Shown here: positions 7,611-62,446 of the stretch, piece by piece
How positions within the stretch are numbered: the stretch's first letter is position 1
Layout: every line of letters starts with the position of its first letter
Source of the DNA: Escherichia phage vB_Eco_F27
Sequence record: OP870146.1
Strand: one strand, 5' to 3'
DNA length: 64,000 nt
Made by a program: the position numbers and the translations under genes
Notes under the pieces: model-generated
The model's input: only the letters and a program-made list of their open reading frames with translations
What the model was told of the DNA's origin: nothing
Databases searched by the model: none

Positions 7611-7644
7611 GTCTATAGTATCATAGACCATAGTTGTTGTACAT
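7611..7644 (-). promoter_or_regulatory. early-type promoter (minus strand)
   Basis: TGTACA-spacer-TACTATAGACC then 5'UTR TATCAAAACAAGAGGAGAA shared with promoter at 55670. Confidence 0.5.
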
Positions 7645-8168
7645 CATTTTAGCAAAATAAAATCAACTTGTTCTGCCAATGAACGTCTAAACATTAATTG
7701 ACAACTTCCGAGGATGAAATCAGGTGCTTCATAGACCGCGATGTAGTATCCTTTAGCTTTCAAGAGTTCAACATCCACCTGGTCATCAAACCATGCATAA
7801 ACCGCGTCAACACTTTCAAATCCAAAATAGAACCCTTGAGCCCAATCTTCGTTCAATTCAAATGTGTGCTCAATTCTATAGTATCTTAAGATATTTTGTT
7901 CAAGGAGTTTGTCTTCATTTACTGTAGGACGATTGGGGACATTATAGTTGTCGCCGTGATGGTAGAAGTTACCTGAGATTATTCCATGTTTATCAAGGAA
8001 CTCCCATGTTTCTTCAGAGTTGTCGGTGCCCGACCAACCGTATGGCGAACGAGGTTCTTTATTCCAAGAGGTTTCCCAAATTCTGACGGCTTTACCGTCT
8101 TCGATAGCAATTCCCGGTAATGATTCACGTTGAGTACAAAAACTACGTTCTACGCGGTAAACTAACAT
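7644..8168 (-). CDS. hypothetical protein
   Basis: 174-aa ORF with own promoter and SD. Confidence 0.5.
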   Translation of the reverse strand: MLVYRVERSFCTQRESLPGIAIEDGKAVRIWETSWNKEPRSPYGWSGTDNSEETWEFLDKHGIISGNFYHHGDNYNVPNRPTVNEDKLLEQNILRYYRIEHTFELNEDWAQGFYFGFESVDAVYAWFDDQVDVELLKAKGYYIAVYEAPDFILGSCQLMFRRSLAEQVDFILLK

Positions 8169-8189
8169 ATTATTCTCCTCTGGTTGATA

Positions 8190-8223
8190 TGGTTATAATA
8201 CAAAAACCAGAGGAGAAGTAAAC
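8190..8223 (-). promoter_or_regulatory. early promoter GTTTAC-N17-TATTAT, spacer complementary to downstream SD
   Basis: Minus strand GTTTAC ttctcctctggtttttg TATTATAACC; spacer CTCCTCTGGTT pairs with 5'UTR AACCAGAGGAG. Confidence 0.6.
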
Positions 8224-9700: not shown

Positions 9701-9730
9701 ATTATACTCCAACCATCCTTGGTTGTAAAC
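9701..9730 (-). promoter_or_regulatory. early promoter with hairpin in spacer
   Basis: GTTTAC aaccaaggatggttggag TATAAT; about 40-bp cassette nearly identical to 52264-52304. Confidence 0.6.
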
Positions 9731-13612: not shown

Positions 13613-14194
13613 CTAAAAATTCAACATTTTCAAATGAATGATTTTGTATAACCGAGATAAAGGGTCATATTCTAAGTCTTCAATTTCTACAATCTCAAAT
13701 CTAGAGATACCTGAGACCATGTACTCTTGTTCAGATTCAATCATATCTAGGACGTCAACACGCTTTTCTTCCATAACATGCTTAGGGTTCTTTCCGGCGA
13801 GTACAATGTTAATCATGTTTTGGTAGTAATCAAAAATGAATGGAGCATTCCTGAGACTAAGAATAGTGTACGTCTGATATTCCCATCTCCCAGAGAATTG
13901 ACGAGCTGTACTGAAATCAGTTGTGAACGATGTTACTCGTCCAGGAGACCAATGGCATCCAACAGAAAGAAGGGAAAGACGTTCTACTTCTTCTGGAGTT
14001 ACACCACGGTAGAGTTCTACTGGTACTGTAGAAGTCATATGCTTACGAACAAGATGGTCTAATTCATAGTGGAAATCTGGGTCTTCCTTAGAATCAGTGC
14101 AAGCCCAGAGAATGTTTTGTTCTTGGCGGGTGAATTTGCTATCAATCAGATTTGTTAGGTATTCACGTTCTTGAAGTTCAGATTGACATGTCAT
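13613..14194 (-). CDS. modB: ADP-ribosyltransferase, ModB-like
   Basis: R-S-E signature (LYRG ... SFT ... ESEQEYMV); paralog of preceding gene. Confidence 0.65.
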   Translation of the reverse strand: MTCQSELQEREYLTNLIDSKFTRQEQNILWACTDSKEDPDFHYELDHLVRKHMTSTVPVELYRGVTPEEVERLSLLSVGCHWSPGRVTSFTTDFSTARQFSGRWEYQTYTILSLRNAPFIFDYYQNMINIVLAGKNPKHVMEEKRVDVLDMIESEQEYMVSGISRFEIVEIEDLEYDPLSRLYKIIHLKMLNF

Positions 14195-14220
14195 GATAGA
14201 CCTCCATTTAAAGATAAGCC

Positions 14221-14250
14221 TATCATAACACGAGAGGAGGGAATGTAAAC
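14221..14250 (-). promoter_or_regulatory. early promoter, spacer complementary to SD
   Basis: GTTTAC attccctcctctcgtgt TATGATAGGC; spacer CCTCCTC vs 5'UTR GGAGG. Confidence 0.55.
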
Positions 14251-15223: not shown

Positions 15224-15408
15224 TCGCAGCTCCCTGAGTCCGAACTACAATCAGAATAACTTGAACCAGAATCTCCAGACCAGGATGATACGTAAGAATG
15301 ATTATAACTTGAAGAGCTTGAAGCAGACTTAGGACGAATAACTTCTTCCATCATGCCGTCACCAATATATTCCCAACTTTTTTCATGTGTATCAGGAATA
15401 TGCATCAT
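15220..15408 (-). CDS. small protein with Ser/Gly-rich C-terminal tail
   Basis: Start taken at MMHIPDTHEK; C-terminus SASSSSSYNHSYVSSWSGDSGSSYSDCSSDSGSCE. Confidence 0.4.
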   Translation of the reverse strand: MMHIPDTHEKSWEYIGDGMMEEVIRPKSASSSSSYNHSYVSSWSGDSGSSYSDCSSDSGSCE

Positions 15409-15710: not shown

Positions 15711-15740
15711 AGAAACGAAAAAAGGAATCCTTCGGGATTC
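15711..15740 (-). terminator. rho-independent terminator after soc
   Basis: AGGAAUCC-CGAA-GGAUUCCU then UUUUUCGUUU. Confidence 0.65.
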
Positions 15741-15750
15741 CTTAAATTAT

Positions 15751-19873: not shown

Positions 19874-19902
19874 TTTAACTCCTTAGTTGATTTGATAGGA
19901 CT

Positions 19903-19932
19903 ACTATACTATAGTCCATCTATAATGTAAAC
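19903..19932 (-). promoter_or_regulatory. early promoter (spackle)
   Basis: GTTTAC-spacer-TATAGTAGTCC; -10 flanked by inverted repeat GGACTA/TAGTCC. Confidence 0.55.
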
Positions 19933-19936
19933 AAGT

Positions 19937-20185
19937 TTATTCTTTTTCGCGAATAATAATTACTTGTTGAGGCTGCTGAGCAGATTTCTTTTCGGCAACG
20001 ATAGACCAAATTAAAGTTCCAATCCAACCAATCATCGTCCAGTTAAAGAGTAAAGATACAAAGAAGATTGCTGTTGTGCTTTTTGTGCCACGAATAAGTG
20101 CGATTACCCAAGGCAACATGTAAATGATGATTGAACCGATACCTGCGATTAAAACTGCTACTGAACTAGCTACGAATAATTCCAT
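19937..20185 (-). CDS. small integral membrane protein
   Basis: 82 aa, two hydrophobic helices. Confidence 0.55.
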   Translation of the reverse strand: MELFVASSVAVLIAGIGSIIIYMLPWVIALIRGTKSTTAIFFVSLLFNWTMIGWIGTLIWSIVAEKKSAQQPQQVIIIREKE

Positions 20186-20212
20186 GTTAATTTCCTCTTG
20201 ATTTGTTATGTT

Positions 20213-20243
20213 TATAGTATCTTATTTTAACTTTGGTGTAAAC
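20213..20243 (-). promoter_or_regulatory. early promoter
   Basis: GTTTAC accaaagttaaaataaga TACTATAAAC upstream of membrane protein gene. Confidence 0.5.
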
Positions 20244-20246
20244 CAA

Positions 20247-20615
20247 TTAATTAAATTTGTTTAAACGTTCAATACACTGGACATAGTTATTCGCGATTTG
20301 TTTCTGGGTAGGCTCTTTACCAGTTGTTTCAACATAGCGAATGAATGCGATTTCAGTAGCCTGTAAGCAATGTTCTTTAACGCGTTGTTCTTTTGACAAC
20401 GCTACGGTATCAGAATCACGATAACGTTGAGCATGGGCATCAGCTTGAATCATTCGATTACCTACAGTAACCGGGTCTTCCACTTCAACTTTAGGTTGGT
20501 CGTACTGTTTAACATTCGGATTGTAAATCAATTGGCCGACGTTATTAGGGATAAAGCCATGGGCACCACATCCGGTTAATCCAAATACCATTGCTAAAGC
20601 GATTAATTTTTTCAT
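20247..20615 (-). CDS. putative lipoprotein
   Basis: Lipobox LTGC after signal peptide. Confidence 0.55.
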   Translation of the reverse strand: MKKLIALAMVFGLTGCGAHGFIPNNVGQLIYNPNVKQYDQPKVEVEDPVTVGNRMIQADAHAQRYRDSDTVALSKEQRVKEHCLQATEIAFIRYVETTGKEPTQKQIANNYVQCIERLNKFN

Positions 20616-20675
20616 TTCAATTTCCTCTGTAGTTGATAGAAAGATAGTAACACAGTATGTGGTGCTTGTAAACAG

Positions 20676-20888
20676 CTATTTTAAACTTTTTCGAAATTTG
20701 CGTTTTTCTTGACGAATCTGTCGTTTAGTCGGACGTACAGCAAATTTAACGAAGTCCACTTTGCCGTGTGGAAACTTTTCAGATGCTTCACAGTCCATCA
20801 TTAGTTCCCATCCTTCCAGAATAAGAGCTTTCCATTGTGTAGTTGATGCAAATTCATATGTTGATGGTTTAAACACAGTTGAATACAT
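20676..20888 (-). CDS. small basic hypothetical protein
   Basis: Start at MYSTVFKP; C-terminal VRPTKRQIRQEKRKFRK. Confidence 0.45.
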   Translation of the reverse strand: MYSTVFKPSTYEFASTTQWKALILEGWELMMDCEASEKFPHGKVDFVKFAVRPTKRQIRQEKRKFRKSLK

Positions 20889-20889
20889 A

Positions 20890-21081
20890 TTATCCTCTGA
20901 AATCAGCTTCAAAAACTTTCTCGTCATTAATAAATGCTTTAACTAATGTTTTGTTCACTTCAGCAAGTTGTACCGTAACCCACTCGATTTCTTCGCGATC
21001 ACCTGATAACATCATATCTTTAGTGAACATCTCACCGCTTTTAAACCAACCGATAAAAGTAACTTTAGTTAATTTGCTCAT
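20890..21081 (-). CDS. dmd: Dmd antitoxin (discriminator of mRNA degradation)
   Basis: MSKLTKVTFIGWFKSGEMFTK...AEVNKTLVKAFINDEKVFEADFRG matches recalled T4 Dmd. Confidence 0.85.
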   Translation of the reverse strand: MSKLTKVTFIGWFKSGEMFTKDMMLSGDREEIEWVTVQLAEVNKTLVKAFINDEKVFEADFRG

Positions 21082-21395
21082 ATTTCCTCGCAAAAGGCCC
21101 ATTCAGCGTGATAAACTGTAGCACCTTTAGTATTATTCATTTGAACTACGTCTACCGGAGAAATTACTCGATAGAGACGTGGTTCACCTCCATAAGAGCG
21201 TGCTGCTCGTCCTGCATAAATCTTTGCTAAACCGATATCTTCAGTAAAGAATACACGATCCAAGTTTTTCTTACGTCCAGTTTCAGACAGAACTCCTGTT
21301 TCTTCAGGAGGACAAAGCATGTTTTCGATGTTAGCTGAACTACTTGAACCGTGATAAAAAATCTTAAATTCTGCTTTACAATCGATGGTTTTCAT
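21078..21395 (-). CDS. hypothetical protein with Arr/Tpt1-like ADP-ribosyltransferase motifs
   Basis: FYHGSSS ... RVFFTEDIGLAKIYAGRAA ... GEPRLYRVISP resembles rifampin-ADP-ribosyltransferase (Arr) H-G-S/T, Y-F-T and Y-x-V/I-x-P blocks. Confidence 0.4.
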   Translation of the reverse strand: MKTIDCKAEFKIFYHGSSSSANIENMLCPPEETGVLSETGRKKNLDRVFFTEDIGLAKIYAGRAARSYGGEPRLYRVISPVDVVQMNNTKGATVYHAEWAFCEEI

Positions 21396-21420
21396 TTTGT
21401 TCTCCAGTAGTTGATAGGTC

Positions 21421-21450
21421 TATAATAACACAACTACTGGAGAAGTAAAC
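21421..21450 (-). promoter_or_regulatory. early promoter, spacer complementary to SD
   Basis: GTTTAC ttctccagtagttgtgt TATTATAGACC; spacer CTCCAGTAGTTG is exact complement of 5'UTR CAACTACTGGAG. Confidence 0.65.
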
Positions 21451-21825
21451 TTAAAAACGTAATTTAGATATATCCGCGTTGATTTCGTTTTGGTTTGCGT
21501 CATATGCAATTAAACGAACCGCTTTAGATGGGTCATTCAATGCATAGAAATGATGGAACATTGCTCGAACGATATCACCATTTACGAGTTCTACCTGGAT
21601 AGGAGAACCTTTTTCGAGTTGGAAATGTTCATAAGCTTTGATGGTTCGTAGATAATCAAGTTTTTGATTTCCGGCTCCAACAATTTGTACGATACGTTTG
21701 CCCGTGTTTTCCATACGAGATACAATAGTTTTAGGAGCAAGAATAACGTAGGTTGCCAGCGGAGAAACTACTTCAACAGTTGTGTTTTCGGTGATTGCAG
21801 TAAAAATTGCTTGAGACATATTCAT
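21451..21825 (-). CDS. hypothetical protein
   Basis: 124-aa ORF with own promoter. Confidence 0.5.
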   Translation of the reverse strand: MNMSQAIFTAITENTTVEVVSPLATYVILAPKTIVSRMENTGKRIVQIVGAGNQKLDYLRTIKAYEHFQLEKGSPIQVELVNGDIVRAMFHHFYALNDPSKAVRLIAYDANQNEINADISKLRF

Positions 21826-21854
21826 AATGTTTTCCTCTTGGTTTGTGTAAGTAC

Positions 21855-21884
21855 ATCATATCATGCCTAGAGGAAGATGTAAAC
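21855..21884 (-). promoter_or_regulatory. early promoter, spacer complementary to SD
   Basis: GTTTAC atcttcctctaggcatga TATGAT; spacer TTCCTCT vs 5'UTR AGAGGAA. Confidence 0.55.
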
Positions 21885-21885
21885 C

Positions 21886-21912
21886 ACGAAAGGAGACCGA
21901 AGTCTCCTTTTT
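21886..21912 (-). terminator. terminator-like hairpin after gene 41 (possibly bidirectional)
   Basis: GGAGAC-UUCG-GUCUCC; short U-run on minus transcript, longer T-run on plus side. Confidence 0.45.
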
Positions 21913-21913
21913 A

Positions 21914-23356
21914 TTAAAATTTTAACTCATTGGCTAAGCTATCTAGGTCAGCACGTGTTGCTTTGGCTTTACCTACGCGTTCCGTACGATTCACCTCTGC
22001 CTGACGCATCTGAGCACCTGCGTTTTCATTTACTGTGTTAGGTGTGTTCATGCCTTCTTGCTCAATCTCAACCCATTTCTGATTGCCTTTACGTACACCC
22101 ATCAGGAATTTATTCCACTTATTCTTATCGCCGTATCGTGATTTGATTTGTTTGATAAGTTGTTGTTCAGCTTGTGCAAGTTCTTCGGTTTCAATTACAG
22201 CCAACATGAAATCTGCCGTTGCTGGTAAACCTGCTGATTCTGCGATATCACTCATGTTCATGTCTGAAGCATCCCATGCTGCACGTCCTACTTGAGCTGC
22301 AGTCCATAGAACTGTTTCAGATTCTACTGCTAATGCACGAAGTTCTTCTGCGATAGCTTTAACTAATGTGTAGCTATTTTCAGTGTAAACTCTGATACGA
22401 CAAGACCCACAAATACCTAAGTAATCAACCATGATTACAGATGGCACAAAGTTCTTCTTAAGTTTTAACTCATTAAGCAATGCACGAAATGTATTAGCAT
22501 TAGCTCCACCAGTAGGATACTGTTTAACTACTAAACGTCCTAATGTGGATTTTGAACGCCATTTTTCCATCTTGGCTTTATATTCAGCATAAGATACGTT
22601 ACCATCATCAATATCATCAAGTGATACGTCAAGCATGTTTGCATCTATACGCTTAGCGCAAACTTCTTCAGCCATTTCCATAGAAATATAAAGAACGTTA
22701 TGACCTGTTTGAAGATAATCTGCGGCAAGTGAACAAAGGCCTAAAGATTTACCAACGTTAACACCAGCCATTAAAACATTCAGTGTACCGGTTTCAGCAC
22801 CACCTTTAGTGATTTTATTCAGAATGTTTAATTTGAACGGGACCTTACGTGCTTTGTTCAGATAAGAAAGCCAGCGTGCTTCATAGTCTTCCATCCAGTC
22901 ATGCCCAACATAACTATCAAACGAAATTGAAAGTGCTTGACGCATAATATCAGGAATAGCTCCTACGTCAGGCATTTTCTTGTTACGTTGTTCTGGAGGT
23001 AGTTCAGCATTAGACTGAATCTCAATGATTTTGGATGTAGCATTATACATCGCTTTTTGCTGGACATATTTCTCAGTTTCTTTAACCAACCATTCATGGT
23101 CTTCAGGAGTATCAGCCAATTTTTCAATTAGGTCTGAAGTTCCTTTATATTCGGCTTCAGTTAAAGAACTGTTATCTAAAGCCACCTTTAATGCATTGAT
23201 AGATGGCATTGCATTATATTCGTTAACGTGGCTCTTTATAATTTTAAAGACGTTTTTTGCCGGTCCACGCTCAAAATACTCAGAATCCATATAAGGCCAG
23301 ACCTTAGAAAAATAAGCCTGGTCATATACGAGATGAGACAAAATAATTTCTACCAC
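21914..23356 (-). CDS. 41: replicative DNA helicase (DnaB-like)
   Basis: 480 aa; Walker A GVNVGKSLGL, Walker B VIMVDYLG; synteny. Confidence 0.9.
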   Translation of the reverse strand: MVEIILSHLVYDQAYFSKVWPYMDSEYFERGPAKNVFKIIKSHVNEYNAMPSINALKVALDNSSLTEAEYKGTSDLIEKLADTPEDHEWLVKETEKYVQQKAMYNATSKIIEIQSNAELPPEQRNKKMPDVGAIPDIMRQALSISFDSYVGHDWMEDYEARWLSYLNKARKVPFKLNILNKITKGGAETGTLNVLMAGVNVGKSLGLCSLAADYLQTGHNVLYISMEMAEEVCAKRIDANMLDVSLDDIDDGNVSYAEYKAKMEKWRSKSTLGRLVVKQYPTGGANANTFRALLNELKLKKNFVPSVIMVDYLGICGSCRIRVYTENSYTLVKAIAEELRALAVESETVLWTAAQVGRAAWDASDMNMSDIAESAGLPATADFMLAVIETEELAQAEQQLIKQIKSRYGDKNKWNKFLMGVRKGNQKWVEIEQEGMNTPNTVNENAGAQMRQAEVNRTERVGKAKATRADLDSLANELKF

Positions 23357-23365
23357 GATAACTCC

Positions 23366-23707
23366 TTAAAAGAATTTAAATTTTTTCTTGGTTCGTTCAT
23401 TAAAAGCTTGTTGTACTTGCATTGTAACACATTTTTCAACATGTGGTGCAAGTTCTGCTTTTCTGTCCTGGTCAAGAACTGCAAAGTCCATTACGATTTT
23501 ACCATCAACCCAGTCTAGTTTTGTAATATAGACTATATGATGGGAACCGTCTTCAAGTGTAATCAGAATCTCTTGAATGACATTTTCCATTGCTGAACGG
23601 ATAATTTTAAGAGATTCATTAAACACTCGTTCTTTGCGAATGTCTTCCCCTTCCGAAGAAGGGGATTCATCAACGATTTCTAGATTTAAATCATCGAGAT
23701 TATTCAT
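23366..23707 (-). CDS. hypothetical protein at gene 40 position
   Basis: Located between 41 and uvsX as T4 gene 40; start taken at MNNLDDLNLEIV (alternative start 23728). Confidence 0.5.
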   Translation of the reverse strand: MNNLDDLNLEIVDESPSSEGEDIRKERVFNESLKIIRSAMENVIQEILITLEDGSHHIVYITKLDWVDGKIVMDFAVLDQDRKAELAPHVEKCVTMQVQQAFNERTKKKFKFF

Positions 23708-24872
23708 CGAAATCTTCCATTTCGTCAAGGTCGTTTTCTATATCTGCTGCAGACGGAGCATCAGAAGTTTTAACCGGAACTTTAGTTGTTGCTTTGCAAT
23801 TAATAAGGTCGTTAACAGCGTCATCAACTTCTTTAATAGAAGAGATAGCACCTAGTTTATATTTAGTTTCAATTGCATCTCGGAAAGGTTTGTGTTTAAA
23901 CAAAGGTCCCCAGAATTCTACACAATCAGTAGCTTTAGCACGCCATGATTTTTCTTCACGAATCATTTCACCTGTTTCTTCGTCAAGGAATTCACGAGCA
24001 TACCAACCAGCTTTAGGCTTAACAACAAATCCAATTTCAGTTGCCATTTCTAACAAGCCACTGAATGGATCAATACCGCCATCAAAATTAACCGTGATCG
24101 GGAAAGTAGATTTCTCTTTAACTGTACGAGATTTTTCTGCTTTCAACGTGAAGTCATAACCGGTCAATTCTGTACCTTCTTTAACCTGACGTTTAGAGAT
24201 AAAGAATACAGTGTTAGCAGAGTAAAGAATACCTGTACCACCACCCATAATCTCTTTAGGATATAGTCCGCCGATTTCCATTGCGGTATGGTTAATTGCA
24301 ACACACGGAATATCTTTAATAGTCAGATACGGGGTCACAATACGGAAAAGAGATTTAAGTGCCTTAGCACGAGACATATCACCTACAACTTTCTCGTTCA
24401 ACGCATCTTCGGTTTCTTTCTTAGATGCAGTATTACCGATTGAATCGATAAAGATAATAACTTTATCACCGCGTTCAATCGCGTCAAGCTGATTAGTCAT
24501 ATCAACTTTAAGTTGTTCGACAGATTGAATCGGAGTATGAACTACACGGTCTAAATCAACACCCATTGAACGAAAATAAGATTCCGAAGCACCGAATTCT
24601 GAGTCATAAAACAAACAGATTGCATCTTTATATTTCTTCATATATGCTGCAACCATGGTCAGTCCAAACAACGTTTTAAAGTGTTTAGAAGGAGCAGCAA
24701 AAATAGTCAAGCCTGATTGCAATCCTGCATTCAGAGCACCACCTAGTGCAATATTCAACATCGGAATACGAGTAGGGACTTCATCACGATTATTAAACAG
24801 CTTAGACTTAGTCAAGTCTGCAGTCATTTTAGAAGTAGAAGCTTTAATCAGACGAGATTTTAAATCAGACAT
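23700..24872 (-). CDS. uvsX: UvsX recombinase (RecA-like)
   Basis: 390 aa, MSDLKSRLIKASTSK..., RecA Walker A/B; close to recalled T4 UvsX. Confidence 0.95.
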   Translation of the reverse strand: MSDLKSRLIKASTSKMTADLTKSKLFNNRDEVPTRIPMLNIALGGALNAGLQSGLTIFAAPSKHFKTLFGLTMVAAYMKKYKDAICLFYDSEFGASESYFRSMGVDLDRVVHTPIQSVEQLKVDMTNQLDAIERGDKVIIFIDSIGNTASKKETEDALNEKVVGDMSRAKALKSLFRIVTPYLTIKDIPCVAINHTAMEIGGLYPKEIMGGGTGILYSANTVFFISKRQVKEGTELTGYDFTLKAEKSRTVKEKSTFPITVNFDGGIDPFSGLLEMATEIGFVVKPKAGWYAREFLDEETGEMIREEKSWRAKATDCVEFWGPLFKHKPFRDAIETKYKLGAISSIKEVDDAVNDLINCKATTKVPVKTSDAPSAADIENDLDEMEDFDE

Positions 24873-24925
24873 TGTATTTTTCCATAGGCATCATTATATT
24901 TTACTCATGTTTAAAAGATAAGATG

Positions 24926-24953
24926 ATTATATACTAAGGGTTATACAGCATTT
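24926..24953 (-). promoter_or_regulatory. possible MotA-dependent middle promoter upstream of uvsX
   Basis: Minus strand AAATGCTGTAtaacccttagtaTATAAT: MotA-box-like TGCTGTA 12 nt before -10. Confidence 0.35.
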
Positions 24954-24970
24954 AAAACTTTAAATGGCTC

Positions 24971-25519
24971 TTAACGAGCCCATTTGATAATTTCTGTAAT
25001 CAAATAATTACGTTCGCTTGCATTAAATCCTATAACTTTGTTAGCACCATCATGATTAAGTAATTGATACGTTTGGATTTTGTTATGAATTGCAAACTCT
25101 TCAAAATGTGAAATGACTGTATTAAAACCGAATGAAGACAAAGTAATAAGGTCGTCTTCAAAACTTTCAGTCATTTCGTTACGTGTTAAAATAATTGTGA
25201 ACACATCATGGTTTTGGCAAAGACGAACATAATCCTGCTCATAAACATCAAGAACAGAGTCCGCATCTTGTCGAATACGTCCATAAACCCAGTTACTAAT
25301 ATATCCACGGTCTAACAGATAAATCTTAGTAGGGTCTAAATAATTCAACATCGTTTCGAAACAACCAACTTCGTTTCGAGACTTAACATCGAAACGTCCA
25401 TCAACCGTTCGTTTAGGGAAATCAATCTTTACATATCTTTCACTAATTTCCATTATGTCATTAATGAAAGTTGTTTTACCAGCATTATCCGGGCCATCTA
25501 CTAAAATAATTTTAGCCAT
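24971..25519 (-). CDS. P-loop nucleotide kinase, thymidylate-kinase-like
   Basis: Walker A ILVDGPDNAGKTT; LLDRGYISNWVYG resembles Tmk DRY/S motif; occupies the slot where T4 has beta-gt. Confidence 0.55.
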   Translation of the reverse strand: MAKIILVDGPDNAGKTTFINDIMEISERYVKIDFPKRTVDGRFDVKSRNEVGCFETMLNYLDPTKIYLLDRGYISNWVYGRIRQDADSVLDVYEQDYVRLCQNHDVFTIILTRNEMTESFEDDLITLSSFGFNTVISHFEEFAIHNKIQTYQLLNHDGANKVIGFNASERNYLITEIIKWAR

Positions 25520-25520
25520 T

Positions 25521-26420
25521 TTATTCCTCGATTACAACATCTTCGTATTTAGGTATATTATACGGTGAAGAAATTAAAGCATTAAAGTAGATGAACTCAC
25601 CAAGACCTGGATGGAATACTTCTTCAGGATTTTCGAAATATTGAATCTTCGGACGTCCTTTAAGAATTTGATAGTACTCAGTTTTAGTTGGTTTAAAAAT
25701 TCGAATCAACGCTTCTTCAGGATACTTATTTCTGTCGAAGCTATTATTTGGATCGGTTATATAAAGCGGTTGACCTAATTGAATTGCGCATTCAACCACT
25801 TGTTCAAAACGATAGCATGGGTCACTAATTCGAAATGGATGAAAAATACCATCTAGATGAATAGGAGCCAAATCACCTACAAGACGCTGCATGATGGAAG
25901 GACGTATAACTTTCTGCGTTACGATAATCTTATTACCATCTGCACCAGCGTTAACCAGCACTTCTTTTTGACGTTCATTCAACACAGTAGTTTGAAGTGA
26001 ACGATTAACCGACAACATATCGGTTTTTAAGAATTCGTCAATATAAAAACGTGGTTTATTAGGGTCTGCAGTGATATTGAAATTGAATTCCACATCAAAA
26101 GCGCCGTCATATCCAGTGATATCTGTGATTAGAAAATCACAATCATAATAAGCAATTAATGAATCAACCACAAATTCATTTTCAGACCAGAAATATTTAC
26201 GAGTGTTATACGCGTTATCTTTATACCATAATGGAACAAACTTAAATTCTGGGAAAAGACGTTCACATTCTTTAATATCAGATGCATTACGTGGATATGT
26301 AATCACATCACCCGGATTAGCACGGTGCAAATGAAGTTGGAAGTTGCCATCCTTAAGGATAGCATACTGTCCAGTTTCATAAGACCGCATACTCAAAATA
26401 GGTACGCGGAAAATAGCCAT
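25521..26420 (-). CDS. hypothetical protein (candidate modification enzyme)
   Basis: 299 aa, no recognisable motif; in operon with gene 42 and Tmk-like kinase. Confidence 0.45.
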   Translation of the reverse strand: MAIFRVPILSMRSYETGQYAILKDGNFQLHLHRANPGDVITYPRNASDIKECERLFPEFKFVPLWYKDNAYNTRKYFWSENEFVVDSLIAYYDCDFLITDITGYDGAFDVEFNFNITADPNKPRFYIDEFLKTDMLSVNRSLQTTVLNERQKEVLVNAGADGNKIIVTQKVIRPSIMQRLVGDLAPIHLDGIFHPFRISDPCYRFEQVVECAIQLGQPLYITDPNNSFDRNKYPEEALIRIFKPTKTEYYQILKGRPKIQYFENPEEVFHPGLGEFIYFNALISSPYNIPKYEDVVIEE

Positions 26421-27178: not shown

Positions 27179-27418
27179 TTATTTGAATTTCTTGACAATG
27201 TTGATATAACGTAAAGCTTCAGCATCGATACTTCCAAGAACACTATGAAGAAATGCATCAGCGTAGTATTCCAATTGAACAGGTTCTTTAATCACTTTAG
27301 CCGCTTTAGTTTCAAACAGGCCCATCAGGGCCTTTTTAAGAATTTGTTCATTAGTGTTCAGTTTAATAGTCAAAATCTCTTCATTAAGTTGGTGGTTAAA
27401 AGTTTTTCTAGAAATCAT
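27179..27418 (-). CDS. hypothetical protein
   Basis: 79-aa ORF between Cys-rich enzyme and gene 42. Confidence 0.45.
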   Translation of the reverse strand: MISRKTFNHQLNEEILTIKLNTNEQILKKALMGLFETKAAKVIKEPVQLEYYADAFLHSVLGSIDAEALRYINIVKKFK

Positions 27419-28575
27419 TCCGGGTACCTCAAAGCGTCATCAGAGTTAGTTATATCAATAATAGATATAGAGTTTTCTGCTAACCCGTTTTTAGATAATT
27501 GACGTTTATAATATCTTTCACAATATGTACACGTCGTCCCGCAGATTTCATTAGCACAATCGAAATCTGGATGTCTGAACCACCTTTTTTCTAAAAAGCC
27601 ATCTAACAAAGAGGTTTCAATATTTACTGTATGTGAAAACTCGGTCTCATTTTCAAGAGTGAAAATAGTCTCTAAAGGCTTCCACAGTTCTAACAAATTA
27701 CCTTCAAACTTTTCAGAAGCGTATGCTTCAAGAACTTTCAAAATGTAGTCTGTGCTACCTGTACGTCCTGAAACTTTGAATTGAGTGATACCAATATCAT
27801 TATAAAGTTTCAAATCTTGAGGACGAACAAAACGAGTTCTCAACCAGTTAAATGGGTCTGTATCACGAGCTTTAATGCAGTGTTGCATTGGGTATCCGTT
27901 TAAGGATTTAGCATCATCAGCTGTAACATCAGTACTATGGAAAATATAGCAAGAGTCACGATAGCTACAATGTGTTGTATACCCTTTACCAGCATTAGAA
28001 CAGAACTCATTTACAAGAACTTCAAATATTATATTGTTCTTATTGCAAAACTCTGCTGCACGCTTCAGGAAAGAAACTGAACGGTTCTTATGAATTCCAC
28101 AGCAGACCTTTTTGATATTATATTGGTCATGCAAGTATTTGATTTGAGTTACAGCATCGACATGTAGAATTGTTGAAACTTCAATCTCAATGTCTTTATT
28201 GACTTCACGAACAATTTCCATAACAACAGGGTTAGCGATAGTAATACGCCATACGCCTATTGACCAAAGATACTGAACATAATCCTGAATAGCTTTCTTC
28301 TTCCACTCAACTAGTTCTCTTTTTGAACCAGGATTTATCGTGTTGAGTGTATAGTTAAAGCAAATACCTAATTCGTTACAACGTTTAACGTAATCTTCTA
28401 ACATCTTTTTGTCAACGTCAGGAAGCCTAAAATCAGGTCTGGCTGCTACAAAAGCCATTTCTCTTGTAGAGCCGTATACTTCGTTTATCAAGCTATTAGG
28501 ATAAGTTTTATTGAGCTCTACGATTTTATCAAGAAGAGCTAAATCAAAATTCGTTCCGATTTTAAAAGTATTCAT
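27415..28575 (-). CDS. Cys-rich hypothetical enzyme (possible Fe-S/metal cluster protein)
   Basis: 386 aa; FCSNAGKGYTTHCSYRDSC and C-terminal CANEICGTTCTYC (Cx4Cx3Cx2C); faint resemblance to peptidase-U32/TIM-barrel family. Confidence 0.45.
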   Translation of the reverse strand: MNTFKIGTNFDLALLDKIVELNKTYPNSLINEVYGSTREMAFVAARPDFRLPDVDKKMLEDYVKRCNELGICFNYTLNTINPGSKRELVEWKKKAIQDYVQYLWSIGVWRITIANPVVMEIVREVNKDIEIEVSTILHVDAVTQIKYLHDQYNIKKVCCGIHKNRSVSFLKRAAEFCNKNNIIFEVLVNEFCSNAGKGYTTHCSYRDSCYIFHSTDVTADDAKSLNGYPMQHCIKARDTDPFNWLRTRFVRPQDLKLYNDIGITQFKVSGRTGSTDYILKVLEAYASEKFEGNLLELWKPLETIFTLENETEFSHTVNIETSLLDGFLEKRWFRHPDFDCANEICGTTCTYCERYYKRQLSKNGLAENSISIIDITNSDDALRYPE

Positions 28576-28634
28576 TTTTTTTTTGCATCTCGCGTTAATT
28601 GGTGCGATGGTTTTTGCAGGTCTTACTTAAATTA

Positions 28635-29036
28635 TTATAGATTCGGTTTATATGATTTAAATGTTTCGAATTCGCCTTTATTCATAAGAGCTTTGAATTC
28701 GTCAGGACGCATAGCTTTGTCGTCGATAATCCAATCATATACTGGTTTATGTGTTAGCAAATTATGGTACTTCAAGCCAATGTTTGCCAAGTTCTGAATC
28801 AGACTTGGGAGAATGTCAATTGCTATACGACCAGGACCTACTGACTTCATACCGCGAGCAGTGTAAAGCGTTATGGTATGCCCTGCATCATACAGAGCAT
28901 TAATGGCAGACACCATTTCGACGTCTGGTTTGAAGTTCACGTAATCACGATTGTTATTCCACTCTGTTATACAATCATCGACATCAAAACAAAGATTAAG
29001 CATGTTTTCTACACGGTGCATTAGATTCGTTCCCAT
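28635..29036 (-). CDS. small HAD-family phosphatase, KdsC-like
   Basis: Motif I FDVDDCIT (same spacing as KdsC FDVDGVLT), motif II TLYTAR, Lys and terminal DD motifs. Confidence 0.6.
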   Translation of the reverse strand: MGTNLMHRVENMLNLCFDVDDCITEWNNNRDYVNFKPDVEMVSAINALYDAGHTITLYTARGMKSVGPGRIAIDILPSLIQNLANIGLKYHNLLTHKPVYDWIIDDKAMRPDEFKALMNKGEFETFKSYKPNL

Positions 29037-30706
29037 TGATGAGTGATATCGCCACCGATTGGACGATAGGAAACACCAGTTTCTTTATCAGTTAGTACCC
29101 ATTTACCAGGATTTTTTGTAATCAGAGTAGCCGTTACAGGTTCTGCTACGTCATAACTAATAGAGCCGTCTTGAAGTACACGGCCCATATTACGTAATTG
29201 CTTAGTCAGAAGTTCCATACCTTTATAATATGCGGCTACCGCTTTAAGTGGATTATTCTTGAAATAACCACCTAATGCAATCCAGATAATTGCCACTGCC
29301 AAATGATGATACTCGTTAAACGAACTCATCTTTCCATATTTGTAAACTAATGGATTGATGTTAATAGTCACATTACAAGTTGTTTCATCAATAGTAAACT
29401 GTCCCCAGGTCGGATTAGCGTTGAATTCATCATAACCTGAAACAGCATAAAGCACTTTAGCTTCATCATACAATTTTGGCCCGTAAATCTTTGTTTCGCC
29501 AAAATATCCACGAGGGTCGATAAATTTGACTTCGCCGTTATCAGTAATCATAGTATTACTGAAGTTCGGGTCACCATGAATAACAGAGTACTGTCCCTGA
29601 GAACGGTTATGATAACGAATAAGGTGTTCTAAAGCTTGTTTCAGCATTGGCTTCAGACGTCCAATCTTAGTGTAGTTCACATGTGTGATTTTACCAAATG
29701 AATCAATCAATGGTTGAATGCTTTCACAACGATCAATAACTTTCGTATAGAATTCTTTAGTGAAATCACGACGAACAGTTTCAGGACTTACAAAATAAGT
29801 GTCTGTGCTGAATTTCAGTGCATCTAAAATTGCATCAACAATTTGTGGACGAGCAAGACTTGATTTGGATTTAATATATTCAAATGCCGGCTTACCTTTA
29901 ATGCGTTCCATTTCAAAGTTATTTTCATTAACAGAAACTAACTGAGGGACTGAATCTGATTTCACTTTCAAATACCACGAAATCTCATCTTTCTGAAGAG
30001 CTCGGCCCTGTTCGGTTAATGCGAATTTAGTTACAGTTTCTTCACCAATTTCAACTGCATTAAAACTACGATTAAGTTCACGAACTTCATGAGCTTTTTC
30101 AAGTTTAGGCATATCACCTAAATCAATTAGATTCATAAGCTCTGATTTATTGAATGCGCTGGCGTAAAGGAATTCTACGAAATCACGTCCTTTGCAGTAT
30201 TCATGAATTTCCTCATCGGTAGAACCCATATAGAATTCCCAGTCTTTGAACTGATAAATTCCTACAACATTACCACCTGTTGAACCTACGTTAGTGATAT
30301 TTTCACCGTCGAAATTATATCGACATTCGTCACCCTTAACATAGATTGCGTTAACATTCCAAGACCATGAACCAAAATCAGGAATAATATCACACCAGTT
30401 AACAATTACGTTATGGCCGTCTAAATCTTTGTGTAATTTAGCAAGAGCATAAGCAGAACCATACGCTTCATCAACTGTACGAATAGTCACATTGAACCCT
30501 TCTTGCTCACAATAAGCTCGAACAGTTTCAGCAAATTTTGAATGAACTACTACAATAATTTCATCTGCGCCAAGGTCAGAATAAATTGTATACAAATTGC
30601 TCAGAATAGTGTCTTGTTTATAGTTAACAAGCACCTTAGGAATATGATGCGTTATTGGATATAAACGAGTTGCCAATCCAGCACCAAGAATAACAGCTTT
30701 TTTCAT
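29021..30706 (-). CDS. bifunctional sugar-1-phosphate nucleotidyltransferase / APH-type sugar kinase
   Basis: N-terminus ILGAGLATRLYPIT..PKVLV (RmlA/GlmU-type G-x-G-T-R-L); C-terminus HGDPNFSNTMITDNGEVKFIDPRGYFG (APH/choline-kinase Brenner and DFG-like motifs). Confidence 0.7.
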   Translation of the reverse strand: MKKAVILGAGLATRLYPITHHIPKVLVNYKQDTILSNLYTIYSDLGADEIIVVVHSKFAETVRAYCEQEGFNVTIRTVDEAYGSAYALAKLHKDLDGHNVIVNWCDIIPDFGSWSWNVNAIYVKGDECRYNFDGENITNVGSTGGNVVGIYQFKDWEFYMGSTDEEIHEYCKGRDFVEFLYASAFNKSELMNLIDLGDMPKLEKAHEVRELNRSFNAVEIGEETVTKFALTEQGRALQKDEISWYLKVKSDSVPQLVSVNENNFEMERIKGKPAFEYIKSKSSLARPQIVDAILDALKFSTDTYFVSPETVRRDFTKEFYTKVIDRCESIQPLIDSFGKITHVNYTKIGRLKPMLKQALEHLIRYHNRSQGQYSVIHGDPNFSNTMITDNGEVKFIDPRGYFGETKIYGPKLYDEAKVLYAVSGYDEFNANPTWGQFTIDETTCNVTININPLVYKYGKMSSFNEYHHLAVAIIWIALGGYFKNNPLKAVAAYYKGMELLTKQLRNMGRVLQDGSISYDVAEPVTATLITKNPGKWVLTDKETGVSYRPIGGDITHQWERI

Positions 30707-30747
30707 GTTGAAGTCCTCATTGGTAAGTAGGAGTATTGTACACTATT

Positions 30748-30891
30748 CTAGTTAAAGCATTCATACTTTGCTTGTAGTCCAATCATAATCCATCCAATTA
30801 CAAGTGTTGGAATCATTACTGGAGCCGTTAAGCTCCAGTAGATAGTCATGACAAGCATCAATAGTAAAAGTCCTATTGTTATTGCTTTCAT
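30748..30891 (-). CDS. small membrane protein
   Basis: 47-codon ORF not in track (MKAITIGLLLLMLVMTIYWSLTAPVMIPTLVIGWIMIGLQ...); ATGA overlap with SIS gene stop. Confidence 0.4.
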   Translation of the reverse strand: MKAITIGLLLLMLVMTIYWSLTAPVMIPTLVIGWIMIGLQAKYECFN

Positions 30892-31523
30892 TGCTCGCCT
30901 CGTAACATGGCACCTAGTGCACCACCTGGATGGAACTTAAGGAAATCATTAGAGGTAAATCCACGTTCAGACGAAAGGTTGATAGCAAACGTATCGATAA
31001 GCGCTAACAACAATGTAGTGGACATAGTCGGAGCCAGAGAATTCTCATCAACCTCTACTGCGATGCCTGCACAGAAAGAATAATCAAAAAGGGCTTCATT
31101 TTCTTGTGGAATGTCCGGGTTACAATGCAACAGAATCTGTTTGACGTTCGGTCGAATCATTTTAAGATGCTTAGCCACGCCTATCATTTCTTCAGTTTTA
31201 CCAGAACGACTAATATGAATCAACACGTCATTAGGCGCAATAAATCCTGCATCACCGTGAGAATAATGCCCAGTGTTCAAGTACATACTCGGGATACCGA
31301 GTGAAGCAAATGTCTCAGAAGCTTTAGTTGCAATATTAGCATTCTTACCAACACCTGTAATAATTACACGACTTTCATAATTACTCAGTCCCGGGCGTCG
31401 AAGAGTTTCTAGAATAGCATTATAACGAGCAGGGTTTTGACTAATTACTTTGGCCATAGCGGCCAAAGAAGAAGCTTGTTTTATGATTGCGTCAATAGCG
31501 ATAGTAATAGGAGTAGTTTTCAT
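30888..31523 (-). CDS. SIS-domain sugar-phosphate isomerase, arabinose-5-phosphate isomerase (KdsD/GutQ)-like
   Basis: VIITGVGKNANIA ... HGDAGFIAPNDVLIHISRSGKTEE ... APTMSTTLLLALIDTFA ... FHPGGALG match SIS motifs. Confidence 0.75.
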   Translation of the reverse strand: MKTTPITIAIDAIIKQASSLAAMAKVISQNPARYNAILETLRRPGLSNYESRVIITGVGKNANIATKASETFASLGIPSMYLNTGHYSHGDAGFIAPNDVLIHISRSGKTEEMIGVAKHLKMIRPNVKQILLHCNPDIPQENEALFDYSFCAGIAVEVDENSLAPTMSTTLLLALIDTFAINLSSERGFTSNDFLKFHPGGALGAMLRGEQ

Positions 31524-43174: not shown

Positions 43175-43243
43175 ATTATTTTCCTCGGTTATTTTATTAT
43201 CCAATGAGAGCATTATACTCTGCTCTCAAGAGTTTGTAAATCG

Positions 43244-43582: not shown

Positions 43583-43876
43583 TCAACTGTAACGATAACA
43601 TTCGTTAGCTTTACGTTTGGCTTCAGTATGAGAAGTATTATAATCATACTCTTCTTTACTGTAAACATCTTTTTTCAACTTACGAACTTCTTTGCGGAGT
43701 TGTCGATTCATTTCATTCTTGACTTCAGAATCAACGCCTTTCATACGTTTCCATTTATCTGAGCGGAAAATGTTTTCAACCATGTCTTTGTGGCTAACAC
43801 CGTCAGGAGCTTTACGCTTACCAAAATAGTCGTAATCACGAACTTTCAAATCTTTACGACGATATGTTTTACCCAT
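43583..43876 (-). CDS. hypothetical basic protein
   Basis: Start taken at MGKTYRRKD. Confidence 0.4.
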   Translation of the reverse strand: MGKTYRRKDLKVRDYDYFGKRKAPDGVSHKDMVENIFRSDKWKRMKGVDSEVKNEMNRQLRKEVRKLKKDVYSKEEYDYNTSHTEAKRKANECYRYS

Positions 43877-44132: not shown

Positions 44133-44431
44133 GGCTTAATTTCCTTCGCAATTGAACAGAAGATACCACGGTCACAAAGCATTTCACCAATTTCTGGATA
44201 TTTGATTGAACGGTACCAAACATCCAGGCTTGAAACTCTGGTTATCTGTACGGCATTACCATTGACAGAATAGTACTGGTCAACCTTAATTTCTTTATCT
44301 TCAATTGTCATTTTATTTTCCTCTATAGTAGATGGTTTAATCTTAACACATCTATTGAGGATGTAAACTGTTTTATGAAAATATTTTTGATTTGAGAGGG
44401 GCACAAGGAGATAGTGAAGTGAAGATTCCAA
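44129..44431 (-). CDS. hypothetical protein
   Basis: ORF, start uncertain (MESS or MTIEDKEIKV). Confidence 0.4.
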   Translation of the reverse strand: MESSLHYLLVPLSNQKYFHKTVYILNRCVKIKPSTIEENKMTIEDKEIKVDQYYSVNGNAVQITRVSSLDVWYRSIKYPEIGEMLCDRGIFCSIAKEIKP

Positions 44432-53364: not shown

Positions 53365-53889
53365 TTATGCGTGAACCGTCTTTAAACGTTCTTCAAATTT
53401 CCGAAGAAGTGCTTGGCGTTCTGCTCGTTGTTCCATATAAGTTTTAATACGACCTGAAGTGAGGGCGTATTGTTCGTTTACCGATTCCTTCATAAAATCA
53501 GGAATCTCACGACAAGTTTTGATTTCGTCGAACTTGTCAATAACTGCTTGTTGTTCTGCAATCAGATTATTGTAGTATTCGATATCTGATTTAATGTTTT
53601 GGATATCAGACTCAGTAGGCATGTTACGTGCTTTACGTTTTGCCTGATATTCTGCGTTTGTAGCACGACTCCAGTGAAGAGTACGTTTTTTGTTAGTGTT
53701 TTTGTAGACTTCCACAATTCCAACTGAATCGATGATAACAATCCAATTCCAGCGAGATTTGAAAATCTGACCTCCGTCCACGGTAATCTCGTTACCATAA
53801 GCAACATCATTAAAGAACTTGCTTTGTGCTTCAGATTTAAATTTACCGTCGTTATAATTTACCAGGTTGAAAATATCTTTAGCGTTCAT
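53365..53889 (-). CDS. hypothetical protein
   Basis: 174-aa ORF with own promoter. Confidence 0.5.
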   Translation of the reverse strand: MNAKDIFNLVNYNDGKFKSEAQSKFFNDVAYGNEITVDGGQIFKSRWNWIVIIDSVGIVEVYKNTNKKRTLHWSRATNAEYQAKRKARNMPTESDIQNIKSDIEYYNNLIAEQQAVIDKFDEIKTCREIPDFMKESVNEQYALTSGRIKTYMEQRAERQALLRKFEERLKTVHA

Positions 53890-53915
53890 GTTTTACCTCC
53901 AGTAGTTGATAGGTC

Positions 53916-53945
53916 TATAATAACATAACCGTAGACCTTGTAAAC
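53916..53945 (-). promoter_or_regulatory. early promoter
   Basis: GTTTAC aaggtctacggttatgt TATTATAGACC; 5'UTR CAACTACTGGAGG shared with promoter at 21421. Confidence 0.55.
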
Positions 53946-58063: not shown

Positions 58064-58312
58064 ATTATTCACCAATTAAAGTTTCAACAAAATTCACTAA
58101 AGCATTCTGGCAAGCATCAACCTGATTTCTATAAAAATTAAATAAGATCCATCAATTTATTAGCTTGTTCACGAGTCATTTTACCATGCTCGCTTCAATA
58201 AGATTCATTACACCATTTACCATGTTATAGGTAAACATCGGATAATTGTATTGTACTACAACATAAGCGATAAGCAAAAGTTTCATTTTGTTCTCCATTT
58301 GTTTTGGTAGGA

Positions 58313-58344
58313 CTACTATAACATAGTCCTACCAAGTTGTAAAC
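58313..58344 (-). promoter_or_regulatory. early promoter, -10 flanked by 9-bp inverted repeat
   Basis: GTTTAC aacttGGTAGGACTatgt TATAGT AGTCCTACC; perfect IR GGTAGGACT/AGTCCTACC. Confidence 0.55.
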
Positions 58345-58577: not shown

Positions 58578-58737
58578 ACATTTGCAATTCGGTGTGGGCG
58601 TCAGCCATCTTTTTCATAGCTCTGTTAATGTCGATGTCTCCATCTTCGCAACCATGAGCATTTTCCCAATCAGATACCGCATTAGCGTACTCTTCAATCA
58701 AAAACATTAACTTAGAAATTTTTTCTTTACGTGACAT
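58558..58737 (-). CDS. hypothetical protein
   Basis: Start at MSRKEKISK after promoter and SD. Confidence 0.4.
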   Translation of the reverse strand: MSRKEKISKLMFLIEEYANAVSDWENAHGCEDGDIDINRAMKKMADAHTELQMYVNEIM

Positions 58738-58764
58738 AACGTTCTCCTCTAGTAAGTAAGGTTT

Positions 58765-58793
58765 ACTATAACACAACCTGAGGAGAAGTAAAC
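58765..58793 (-). promoter_or_regulatory. early promoter, spacer complementary to SD
   Basis: GTTTAC ttctcctcaggttgtgt TATAGT; spacer CTCCTC vs 5'UTR GAGGAG. Confidence 0.55.
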
Positions 58794-58802
58794 TGATAGA
58801 TG

Positions 58803-58832
58803 CCAAAAAGCCCCAACCTTTCGGAAGGGGCT
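58803..58832 (-). terminator. rho-independent terminator after rI
   Basis: AGCCCC...GGGGCU stem then UUUUUGG. Confidence 0.55.
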
Positions 58833-62415: not shown

Positions 62416-62446
62416 CTATAGTAACACAACTAGAGGAGAAGTAAAC
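62416..62446 (-). promoter_or_regulatory. early promoter of regB, spacer complementary to SD
   Basis: GTTTAC ttctcctctagttgtgt TACTATAGACC; spacer CTCCTCTAGTTG is exact complement of 5'UTR CAACTAGAGGAG. Confidence 0.65.

Follow-up and report, generated by a model that had tools for sequence, protein, structure and literature searches.

We analyzed 64,000 nucleotides of the genome of Escherichia phage vB_Eco_F27 (OP870146.1; this whole stretch is called the window) for early promoters that are complementary to a ribosome-binding site, that of the gene they serve. The window comes from an RB69-group (Mosigvirus) T4-type coliphage. Positions 20000-26000 are 98.6% identical to Escherichia phage APCEc01 and many relatives, and 98.3% identical to phage moha, a close relative that is itself classified as a Mosigvirus. 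Genes on the minus strand follow the order rIIA ... motB region ... modA/B ... soc ... 61 ... 41 ... uvsX ... 43 ... 55 ... nrdC region ... regB, and every feature of the promoter hairpins described below lies on this strand. We find that at three early promoters (8223, 21450, and 62446), the spacer between the -35 and -10 hexamers is a perfect 13-14 base pair (bp) match to the segment that holds the downstream Shine-Dalgarno sequence (SD). These promoters precede a motB.2-like gene, a conserved open reading frame (ORF) of 105 amino acids, and regB, respectively:

8218-8223, minus strand: -35 hexamer GTTTAC, early promoter of the motB.2-like gene (stop of the upstream ORF at 8228)
8205-8217, minus strand: 5' arm TTCTCCTCTGGTT within the -35/-10 spacer, missing from promoter-started RNA
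8195-8200, minus strand: -10 hexamer TATTAT, in the hairpin loop
8173-8185, minus strand: 3' arm AACCAGAGGAGAA with the SD (GGAG, then an A-rich tail, resembling a RegB site)
7644-8168, minus strand: downstream gene, motB.2-like ORF of 174 amino acids, ATG at 8168-8166 ("transcriptional regulator" in the phage moha annotation)
21445-21450, minus strand: -35 hexamer GTTTAC, adjoining the stop codon of the upstream ORF (21451-21453)
21431-21444, minus strand: 5' arm TTCTCCAGTAGTTG in the spacer
21422-21427, minus strand: -10 hexamer TATTAT, in the loop
21400-21413, minus strand: 3' arm CAACTACTGGAGAA with the SD
21078-21395, minus strand: downstream gene, ORF of 105 amino acids (MKTIDCK...), widely conserved, just upstream of dmd
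62441-62446, minus strand: -35 hexamer GTTTAC of the regB promoter (stop of the upstream ORF at 62450)
62427-62440, minus strand: 5' arm TTCTCCTCTAGTTG in the spacer of the regB promoter
62418-62423, minus strand: -10 hexamer TACTAT of the regB promoter, in the loop
62396-62409, minus strand: 3' arm CAACTAGAGGAGAA with the regB SD (orthologous stems in T4 and four other lineages)
61931-62389, minus strand: downstream gene, regB, 152 amino acids, 77% identical to T4 RegB

The match is 13 bp long at 8223 and 14 bp long at both 21450 and 62446. The predicted folds reach -21.1 kcal/mol (z -5.5), -21.7 kcal/mol (z -5.5), and -21.6 kcal/mol (z -4.9), respectively, and at each site none of 200 shuffled sequences folds as well. 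The CTCC/GGAG pairs that involve the SD lie near the base of each stem, as its third to sixth pairs, while the loop of 18-22 nucleotides holds the -10 box and the transcription start. The upstream ORFs have their stop codons 0-4 nucleotides ahead of the -35 hexamer and 6-10 nucleotides ahead of the first paired base. No terminator-like site was found between the upstream ORF and the promoter at 8223 or 21450 (the scan did not reach 62446), and direct reading of the sequence reveals no T-run or U-tract after the 3' arm at any of the three sites. Given the close stop codons and, at 8223 and 21450, the lack of a terminator-like site, these elements should be crossed by read-through RNA that starts at early promoters further upstream and, at later times, at middle promoters. 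The MotA-box middle-promoter pattern TGCTTnA-N11-13-TAnnnT is strongly enriched in the whole window (20 matches against 3.8 +/- 1.7 expected); 12 of the 20 are on the minus strand, for example at 15301-15325 (upstream of modB), 25557-25581, and 60737-60762.

Early promoters were collected with a scan for GTTTAC (at most one mismatch), N16-18, and TAnnnT that stand ahead of an SD, an ATG, and an ORF. This yielded 22 promoters of the form GTTTAC-N17/18-TAnnnT on the minus strand of the window. The bare motif GTTTAC-N17-TATNNT is not enriched in the window (15 found, 9.2 +/- 3.0 expected); the promoters are marked instead by their placement ahead of an SD and ATG and by their strand bias. The original prediction, made from the sequence alone, had listed six GTTTAC-N17-TAT(A/T)AT promoters whose spacers would complement the SD. 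All six sites exist at the coordinates given; they lie on the minus strand, and the sequences cited are reverse complements of the plus strand. The consensus itself needs widening, as the -10 boxes also include TATTAT, TACTAT, TATAGT, and TATGAT, and the spacer at site 21884 is N18. The complementarity is exact at 8223, 21450, and 62446, weak at 58793 and 21884, and was wrong in detail at 14250.

Spacer/SD complementarity is enriched well beyond chance. A run of at least 7 bp occurs at 5 of the 22 promoters. With shuffled spacers, the control that the original prediction had asked for, 2000 trials average 0.28 such promoters and never give more than 4. Duplexes of -15 kcal/mol or lower between the part missing from promoter-started RNA and the translation initiation region form at four of the 22 promoters, where 0.05 would be expected from shuffles and 0.48 from non-cognate pairings of promoters and untranslated regions (UTRs). 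The differences between copies are indeed compensatory, as had been proposed: among the three strong sites, each spacer pairs with its own UTR over 13, 14, and 14 bp, compared with 6-9 bp for non-cognate combinations.

The position of the 5' arm determines which transcripts carry it. The arm lies in the spacer that separates the -35 box from the -10 box, or over the -10 box, so RNA begun at that promoter lacks it, whatever the exact start site, whereas RNA begun upstream contains both arms. We modeled read-through RNA by including 40 nucleotides of upstream sequence, and promoter-started RNA as beginning 7 nucleotides after the -10 box. The predicted probability that the SD is unpaired is 0.00-0.02 in the former and 0.5-0.7 in the latter, a shift that holds at 8223, 21450, 62446, and 58793 and agrees with the folding difference originally anticipated.

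The promoter of a modB-like gene (14250) carries a variant of this design. Its spacer/SD match is only the trivial CCTCC / GGAGG, but a hairpin of -22.5 kcal/mol (z -4.8) is predicted from other parts of the promoter: CGUGUUAUGAUAGGCU, comprising the spacer end, -10 box, and discriminator, pairs with GGUCUAUCAUGACAUG, comprising the 3' part of the SD and the AUG. Genes for modB/modA-like ADP-ribosylases follow both this site and site 13613. Across 8223, 21450, 62446, and 14250, the SD and/or start codon is predicted to be sequestered on upstream-initiated RNA in a helix of -21 to -22.5 kcal/mol (z -4.8 to -5.5). Three further members are weaker. The first, at 58793, precedes a mobD.2a-like gene and has only 8 bp of pairing (-14.2 kcal/mol, z -1.5, 16 of 200 shuffles as good). 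Site 21884, ahead of an ORF of 124 amino acids, has 7 perfect bp, or 10 bp with one mismatch (-10.1 kcal/mol, z -1.4). Site 44368, ahead of a 55.6 homologue, was overlooked in the original prediction; its arms are interrupted by an internal loop (-12 kcal/mol, z -2.7).

14217-14232, minus strand: variant 5' arm CGTGTTATGATAGGCT, covering the spacer end, the -10 box TATGAT (14222-14227), and the discriminator of the modB-like promoter (-35 at 14245-14250)
14187-14202, minus strand: variant 3' arm GGTCTATCATGACATG, made up of the SD's 3' part, the start codon (14192-14194), and the opening codons of the modB-like gene
58742-58787, minus strand: weak member with arms TTCTCCTC (58780-58787) and GAGGAGAA (58742-58749); -35 at 58788-58793, ATG at 58735-58737
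21832-21875, minus strand: weak member TTCCTCTAGG / CCAAGAGGAA, one mismatch; -35 at 21879-21884, ATG at 21823-21825
44319-44361, minus strand: member with arms TCCTC..TAGATG / CATCTA..GAGGA; -35 at 44363-44368, ATG at 44309-44311

Intrinsic-terminator hairpins stand directly upstream of the -35 box at promoters 58793 (~58805-58831), 21884 (~21890-21909), and 15707 (15722-15743), all on the minus strand. SD pairing at the promoters behind these terminators is weak or absent.

Phage T4 has the same design. Within positions 1-78000 of AF158101, we find it at regB, motB.2, modB, denV, and nrdC.8, and duplexes of -17 kcal/mol or lower occur at 4 of 27 promoters, against 0.03-0.04 expected. The T4 regB stem (TTTTCCTCTTGACTG / CAGTTAAGAGGAGAA) has 15 bp, including two G.U pairs, and the motB.2 stem has ~17 bp with the -10 box as its loop. 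At T4 modB, the -10 box TATGAT is paired with ATCATG; at denV, TCTCCTGTAG pairs with CTACAGGAGA. The nrdC.8 promoter/SD stem (53885-53943) has ~13 bp with two G.U pairs and a duplex energy of -21.9 kcal/mol. Four of the T4 hairpins are 7-10 kcal/mol more stable as sense than as antisense RNA owing to their G.U pairs, which points to mRNA rather than DNA as the acting molecule. Over all hairpins, sense and antisense fold energies do not differ significantly (Wilcoxon p = 0.10), the comparison being informative for T4 only. Counts of G.U versus A.C mismatches in the anchored alignment described below, which could separate RNA from DNA and sense from antisense, gave no signal, the cases being too few.

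Orthologues retain the pairing while the paired sequences change. Among regB orthologues in IMG/VR, five lineages keep the spacer/SD stem with different distal arms (CTAGTTG/CAACTAG, CTTGACTG/CAGTTAAG, CTTTATG/CATAAAG, TGTAAGT/ACTTACA, and a nested form in L136). The denV orthologues differ on both arms (GTAGGTA/CAACTAC in T4, GTAGATG/CATCTAC in L019). Initiation-region hairpins precede modB in three lineages; the -10/AUG pairing itself occurs in the window and T4, and in the modB-like genes of L193 and L194, the promoter core pairs over the SD and start codon in a different register, with the -10 box in an internal loop. Single-protein searches for orthologues of the motB.2-like and modB-like genes covered only three loci each.

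To measure covariation, we excised the arms of 38 unique promoters, used the invariant CTCC and GGAG as the sole anchors, and scored the distal eight positions; a plain MAFFT alignment of regB leaders had placed the 3' arms out of register. The covariation score is 0.191, compared with 0.102 +/- 0.012 in shuffles (0 of 500 reach it) and 0.04-0.10 when the partner is slid. At least four pairs beyond CTCC/GGAG form in 34% of cognate but 4.7% of non-cognate combinations, and all such cognate cases reach at least five.

These elements resemble hairpins known from T4 late genes. For the genes e, soc, 49, and I-TevI, translation is confined to RNA from a promoter lying inside the hairpin (PMC3014915, PMC2988022), and the e hairpin has been reported to lower lysozyme synthesis ~100-fold (PMC3014915). 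As in T4 e, soc, 49, I-TevI, I-TevII, I-TevIII, and segB and in Aeh1 mobE, a helix over the SD or AUG is predicted on the long RNA, and transcripts of the gene's own promoter lack the 5' arm. The stability is also comparable: folded in the same way, a 93-nucleotide window of T4 e gives -15.1 kcal/mol, nearly all of it from the e hairpin with a small outer helix of two pairs, against about -21 kcal/mol for the elements described here. As a positive control, we ranked 142 T4 genes by how strongly their initiation region (positions -13 to +3, folded within 110 nucleotides of context) is predicted to be occluded. The late and early sets rank together, with 49, segB, and e in first to third place, modB in fifth, and regB in seventh. 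The hairpins of 49 and e are documented, while segB is only implicated according to reviews.

The difference lies in the promoter and the time of expression. In the late-gene class, a late promoter (TATAAATA) serves a late gene, and Edgell et al. (2010) stated that the genes regulated by such hairpins "are all late genes" (PMC2988022). In the elements described here, that internal position is taken by an early promoter of the sigma-70 type, GTTTAC-N17/18-TAnnnT, whose spacer or -10 box forms the arm, and the genes are regB, motB.2-like, and modB-like. With an early promoter and an early gene in place of late ones, these elements would work like the e/soc/49/I-TevI class yet fall outside it as defined. 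The timing logic would also be inverted, with translation occurring only early and ceasing afterwards.

We suggest that translation of these genes depends on which promoter made the RNA, with the core of the early promoter serving as the 5' arm of an mRNA helix. This is the best explanation we can offer for the predicted structures, and we regard it as rather probable. The 5' arm would be the -35/-10 spacer, or the -10 box at modB, and the 3' arm would be the SD and/or AUG of the next gene. RNA started at the promoter would begin past the -10 box with a short open leader and would be translated. On read-through RNA, the two arms would pair with each other (about -21 kcal/mol) and conceal the SD, leaving the cistron silent. 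Synthesis of the gene product would then be limited to the time in which its own early promoter is firing.

The endonuclease RegB may add a second layer of control. RegB requires a single-stranded GGAG with an A-rich tail (consensus GGAGAAUAAAA) and is inhibited by secondary structure (PMC1702504). It cuts the regB SD in T4, RB69, and relatives (PMC3014915, PMC1702504). The regB gene is known to regulate itself through this SD, and the T4 regB promoter is an experimentally recognized early promoter (PMC3014915). The exposed SDs in the 3' arms (GGAGAAUAAUAUG, GGAGAACAAAAUG, and GGAGAAAUCAAAAUG) fit the RegB consensus, each with GGAG followed by an A-rich tail. RegB could cut and inactivate promoter-started RNA, while the hairpin would silence read-through RNA and shield it from RegB. 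The combined result would be a sharp immediate-early pulse of regB, motB.2, modB, and others.

The original prediction had likened these sites to the promoter-early stem-loop (PeSL) cassettes of T4-type phages. We find that this likeness holds for the cassettes, with their repetition and ORF insertion, but not for the position of the stem-loop, and the published stem-loops have been read as terminators or attenuators and not as traps for the SD. As in the PeSL cassettes of RB49/phi1, PST/T4, and nt-1/KVP40 (Arbiol 2010, Comeau 2014), intergenic modules run from an upstream stop codon through an AT-rich region and an early promoter to an SD and an ATG; the window has 22 of them on its minus strand. 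They also flank small ORFs, with evidence of cassette insertion in the window and of chimeric promoters in L004 and L005, and the terminators ahead of promoters 58793, 21884, and 15707 match the PST/T4-type arrangement. Five positions have been published for PeSL stem-loops: upstream of the -35 box, on that box, between the two boxes, on the -10 box, and immediately ahead of the start site. These stem-loops are interpreted as terminators or attenuators and as recombination sites (PMC2839356, PMC4122927). In none of them does the stem connect the spacer to the SD and leave the -10 box and start site in a loop of 18-22 nucleotides, as the stems reported here do. Arbiol et al. (2010) never use the word translation.

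The described PeSL positions do occur at other promoters of the window (58344, 19932, 43241, and 9730). In this second kind of hairpin, the stem closes tightly about the -10 box, covers it, or sits within the spacer, and it stops short of the SD. At 58344, for example, TTGGTAGGACTAT/ATAGTCCTACCAA form a 13-bp stem with a fold of -20.6 kcal/mol.

58304-58335, minus strand: second-kind hairpin
19885-19920, minus strand: second-kind hairpin
43205-43228, minus strand: second-kind hairpin
43629-43662, minus strand: second-kind hairpin
53911-53938, minus strand: second-kind hairpin
9706-9719, minus strand: second-kind hairpin inside the spacer of promoter 9730

T4 has hairpins of this kind at ipI, ipII, ipIII, mobD.2, and dmd. 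They match the published PeSL stem-loops and those of the internal-protein loci. In the summary of Repoila et al. (1994) given in PMC2839356, the early promoters of T-even internal-protein loci are accompanied by AT-rich stem-loops and neighbor small, variable genes. As far as that summary describes them, such elements correspond to window promoters 58344 and 19932 and to T4 ipII and ipIII, where the -10 box is in the loop, and differ from the spacer/SD hairpins in that their stems close right around the -10 box, short of the SD.

Several observations indicate that these cassettes are exchanged. The ORF of 124 amino acids and a second promoter (~430 bp, 21451-21884, minus strand) constitute an insertion relative to three other T-even lineages (L146, L152, and L157), splitting the 5' and 3' halves of what is a single promoter in those phages. 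From the sequence comparison, the insertion fits promoter-mediated cassette shuffling. In IMG/VR genome 641509422, two loci (L004:5661-5689 and L005:9783-9811) share the same spacer TTCTCCTGTAGGCATGA, -10 box, and leader as far as ATCAACT, ahead of two different genes. The leader complementarity is 10 bp with denV but only 6 bp with the MKTIDCK gene, indicating that recombination can break the pairing. Further, the regB promoter spacer (62427-62440) matches the leader of the mobD.2a-like gene (58742-58753) over 12 bp, compared with 8 bp for that gene's own spacer, which hints at exchange between cassettes.

Could the hairpins instead attenuate or terminate upstream transcription, either directly or through Rho-dependent polarity of an untranslated cistron? 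PeSL stem-loops have been read in this way, and one RB49 stem-loop cut lacZ expression like a strong terminator (PMC2839356). In the most distant regB orthologue (L139) and in the non-Mosigvirus orthologues of the 105-amino acid ORF, the long stem is absent and a true terminator lies upstream, as though one device stood in for the other. This alternation is anecdotal, coming from those orthologues, and we found no association between long stems and the absence of an upstream terminator across 49 promoters (Fisher p = 1.0, with an imperfect terminator detector). With no U-tract after the 3' arm and loops of 18-22 nucleotides, the strong hairpins do not look like intrinsic terminators, a candidate we rejected on these grounds, and it is to the SD, through CTCC/GGAG, that the arms are specifically anchored. 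Rho-dependent polarity would follow from a block of the SD and would not replace it; if untranslated cistrons do undergo such polarity, promoter-dependent translation might be reconciled with the attenuator view of PeSL stem-loops. Overall, we consider attenuation unlikely. Translational coupling, in which the SD on polycistronic RNA would open only when the stem base is melted by a ribosome that completes the upstream ORF, appears less likely still. In favor of coupling, the upstream stop codons lie only 6-10 nucleotides before the first paired base and the CTCC/GGAG pairs are close to the stem base. Nonetheless, the terminating ribosome would have to open at least six pairs from that distance, since the SD forms the third to sixth of 13-14 bp, and T4 precedents with the same geometry repress rather than couple (PMC3014915).

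A further possibility is that the hairpin protects intergenic GGAG from RegB on long transcripts, or stabilizes or processes the RNA, for the benefit of distal cistrons. RegB's preference for single-stranded GGAG with an A-rich tail, and its inhibition by structure (PMC1702504), are in keeping with this, as are the fit of the SDs to the consensus and the presence of a hairpin at regB itself in five lineages. The modB-type hairpins, however, cover the AUG and not the GGAG. Such a shield is compatible with promoter-dependent translation, and probably additive to it rather than exclusive; as the whole explanation it seems improbable. We likewise give little credence to an inverted repeat without RNA function, arising as a recombination by-product of the cassettes or acting as a DNA element (a cruciform or a palindromic operator over the promoter). 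The cassettes clearly recombine, as seen in the shared promoter of L004 and L005, the leader at 58793 that matches a foreign spacer better than its own, and the ORF cassette inserted between promoter halves; perfect stems also fold equally well on both strands. Set against this, the complementarity is kept while the sequence changes, in paralogues and orthologues alike, the G.U pairs make the T4 stems sense-specific, and in every case the SD or AUG of the gene downstream takes part in the repeat. Complementarity that outlasts its sequence argues against a sequence-specific operator, and we rejected a palindromic operator for this reason. An RNase III site was also rejected, because a stem of 13-14 bp is on the short side for such sites.

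Other observations weigh against promoter-dependent translation. The perfect Watson-Crick stems of the window cannot by themselves separate an RNA role from a DNA role, and sites 21884 and 44368 are more stable when folded as antisense RNA. The weak members 58793 and 21884 are individually non-significant against shuffled folds. A ribosome ending on the upstream ORF, 6-10 nucleotides before the stem, could partly open it. The hairpin is present at only about a quarter of early promoters, and in T4, occlusion is not significantly greater for genes that have an early promoter than for those that lack one (p = 0.075); the feature belongs to a subset and not to the whole early-promoter class. It is also gained and lost between lineages and is not found at every orthologous position. 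The 105-amino acid ORF has the stem only in the Mosigvirus lineage, and nrdC.8 in the window (53889-53945) has a hairpin around its -10 box (AGGTCTA/TAGACCT) with the SD free. Compared with the promoter/SD stem at T4 nrdC.8, this shows that one gene can bear different hairpin types in two phages.

On the sequence comparisons made here, the use of a promoter-in-hairpin design by early genes, including regB, appears to be new relative to its known use by late genes, although older literature may hold an earlier description. RegB sites are defined as single-stranded, and we did not find a complementary arm embedded in the promoter described in the RegB literature, where an older account is likewise possible. 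No Rfam family matches the window. The rapid fall of early-protein synthesis in T4 is only partly explained, with early promoters being shut down by an incompletely understood mechanism to which RegB contributes (PMC3014915). If our proposal is true, hairpins that silence read-through immediate-early cistrons would supply a missing piece of this shut-off, mirroring the e/soc/49 switch of the late genes. Selection would then act on the "non-specific" spacer of a sigma-70 promoter as an arm of an mRNA helix, and at least some PeSL stem-loops would be translational gates and not terminators, refining that concept. For annotation and engineering, such a gene would be silenced or de-silenced when transferred without its promoter or placed under a different one. 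We see about an even chance that promoter-of-origin translation is hard-wired into a subset of T-even immediate-early genes (regB, motB.2, modB, denV, nrdC.8, and others) and, together with RegB, forms a general, unrecognized part of the abrupt early shut-off. Because T4 bears the same structures at these five named genes, the idea can be tested there directly.

One neighboring region of the window differs from T4 in gene content. According to the phage moha annotation (L121), the minus strand at ~27400-31500, from the gene 42 region to gene 43, contains GlmU-like, arabinose-5-phosphate isomerase, and capsule-biosynthesis genes, none of which is annotated between genes 42 and 43 in T4. These genes may serve a sugar pathway for DNA modification in the RB69 group.

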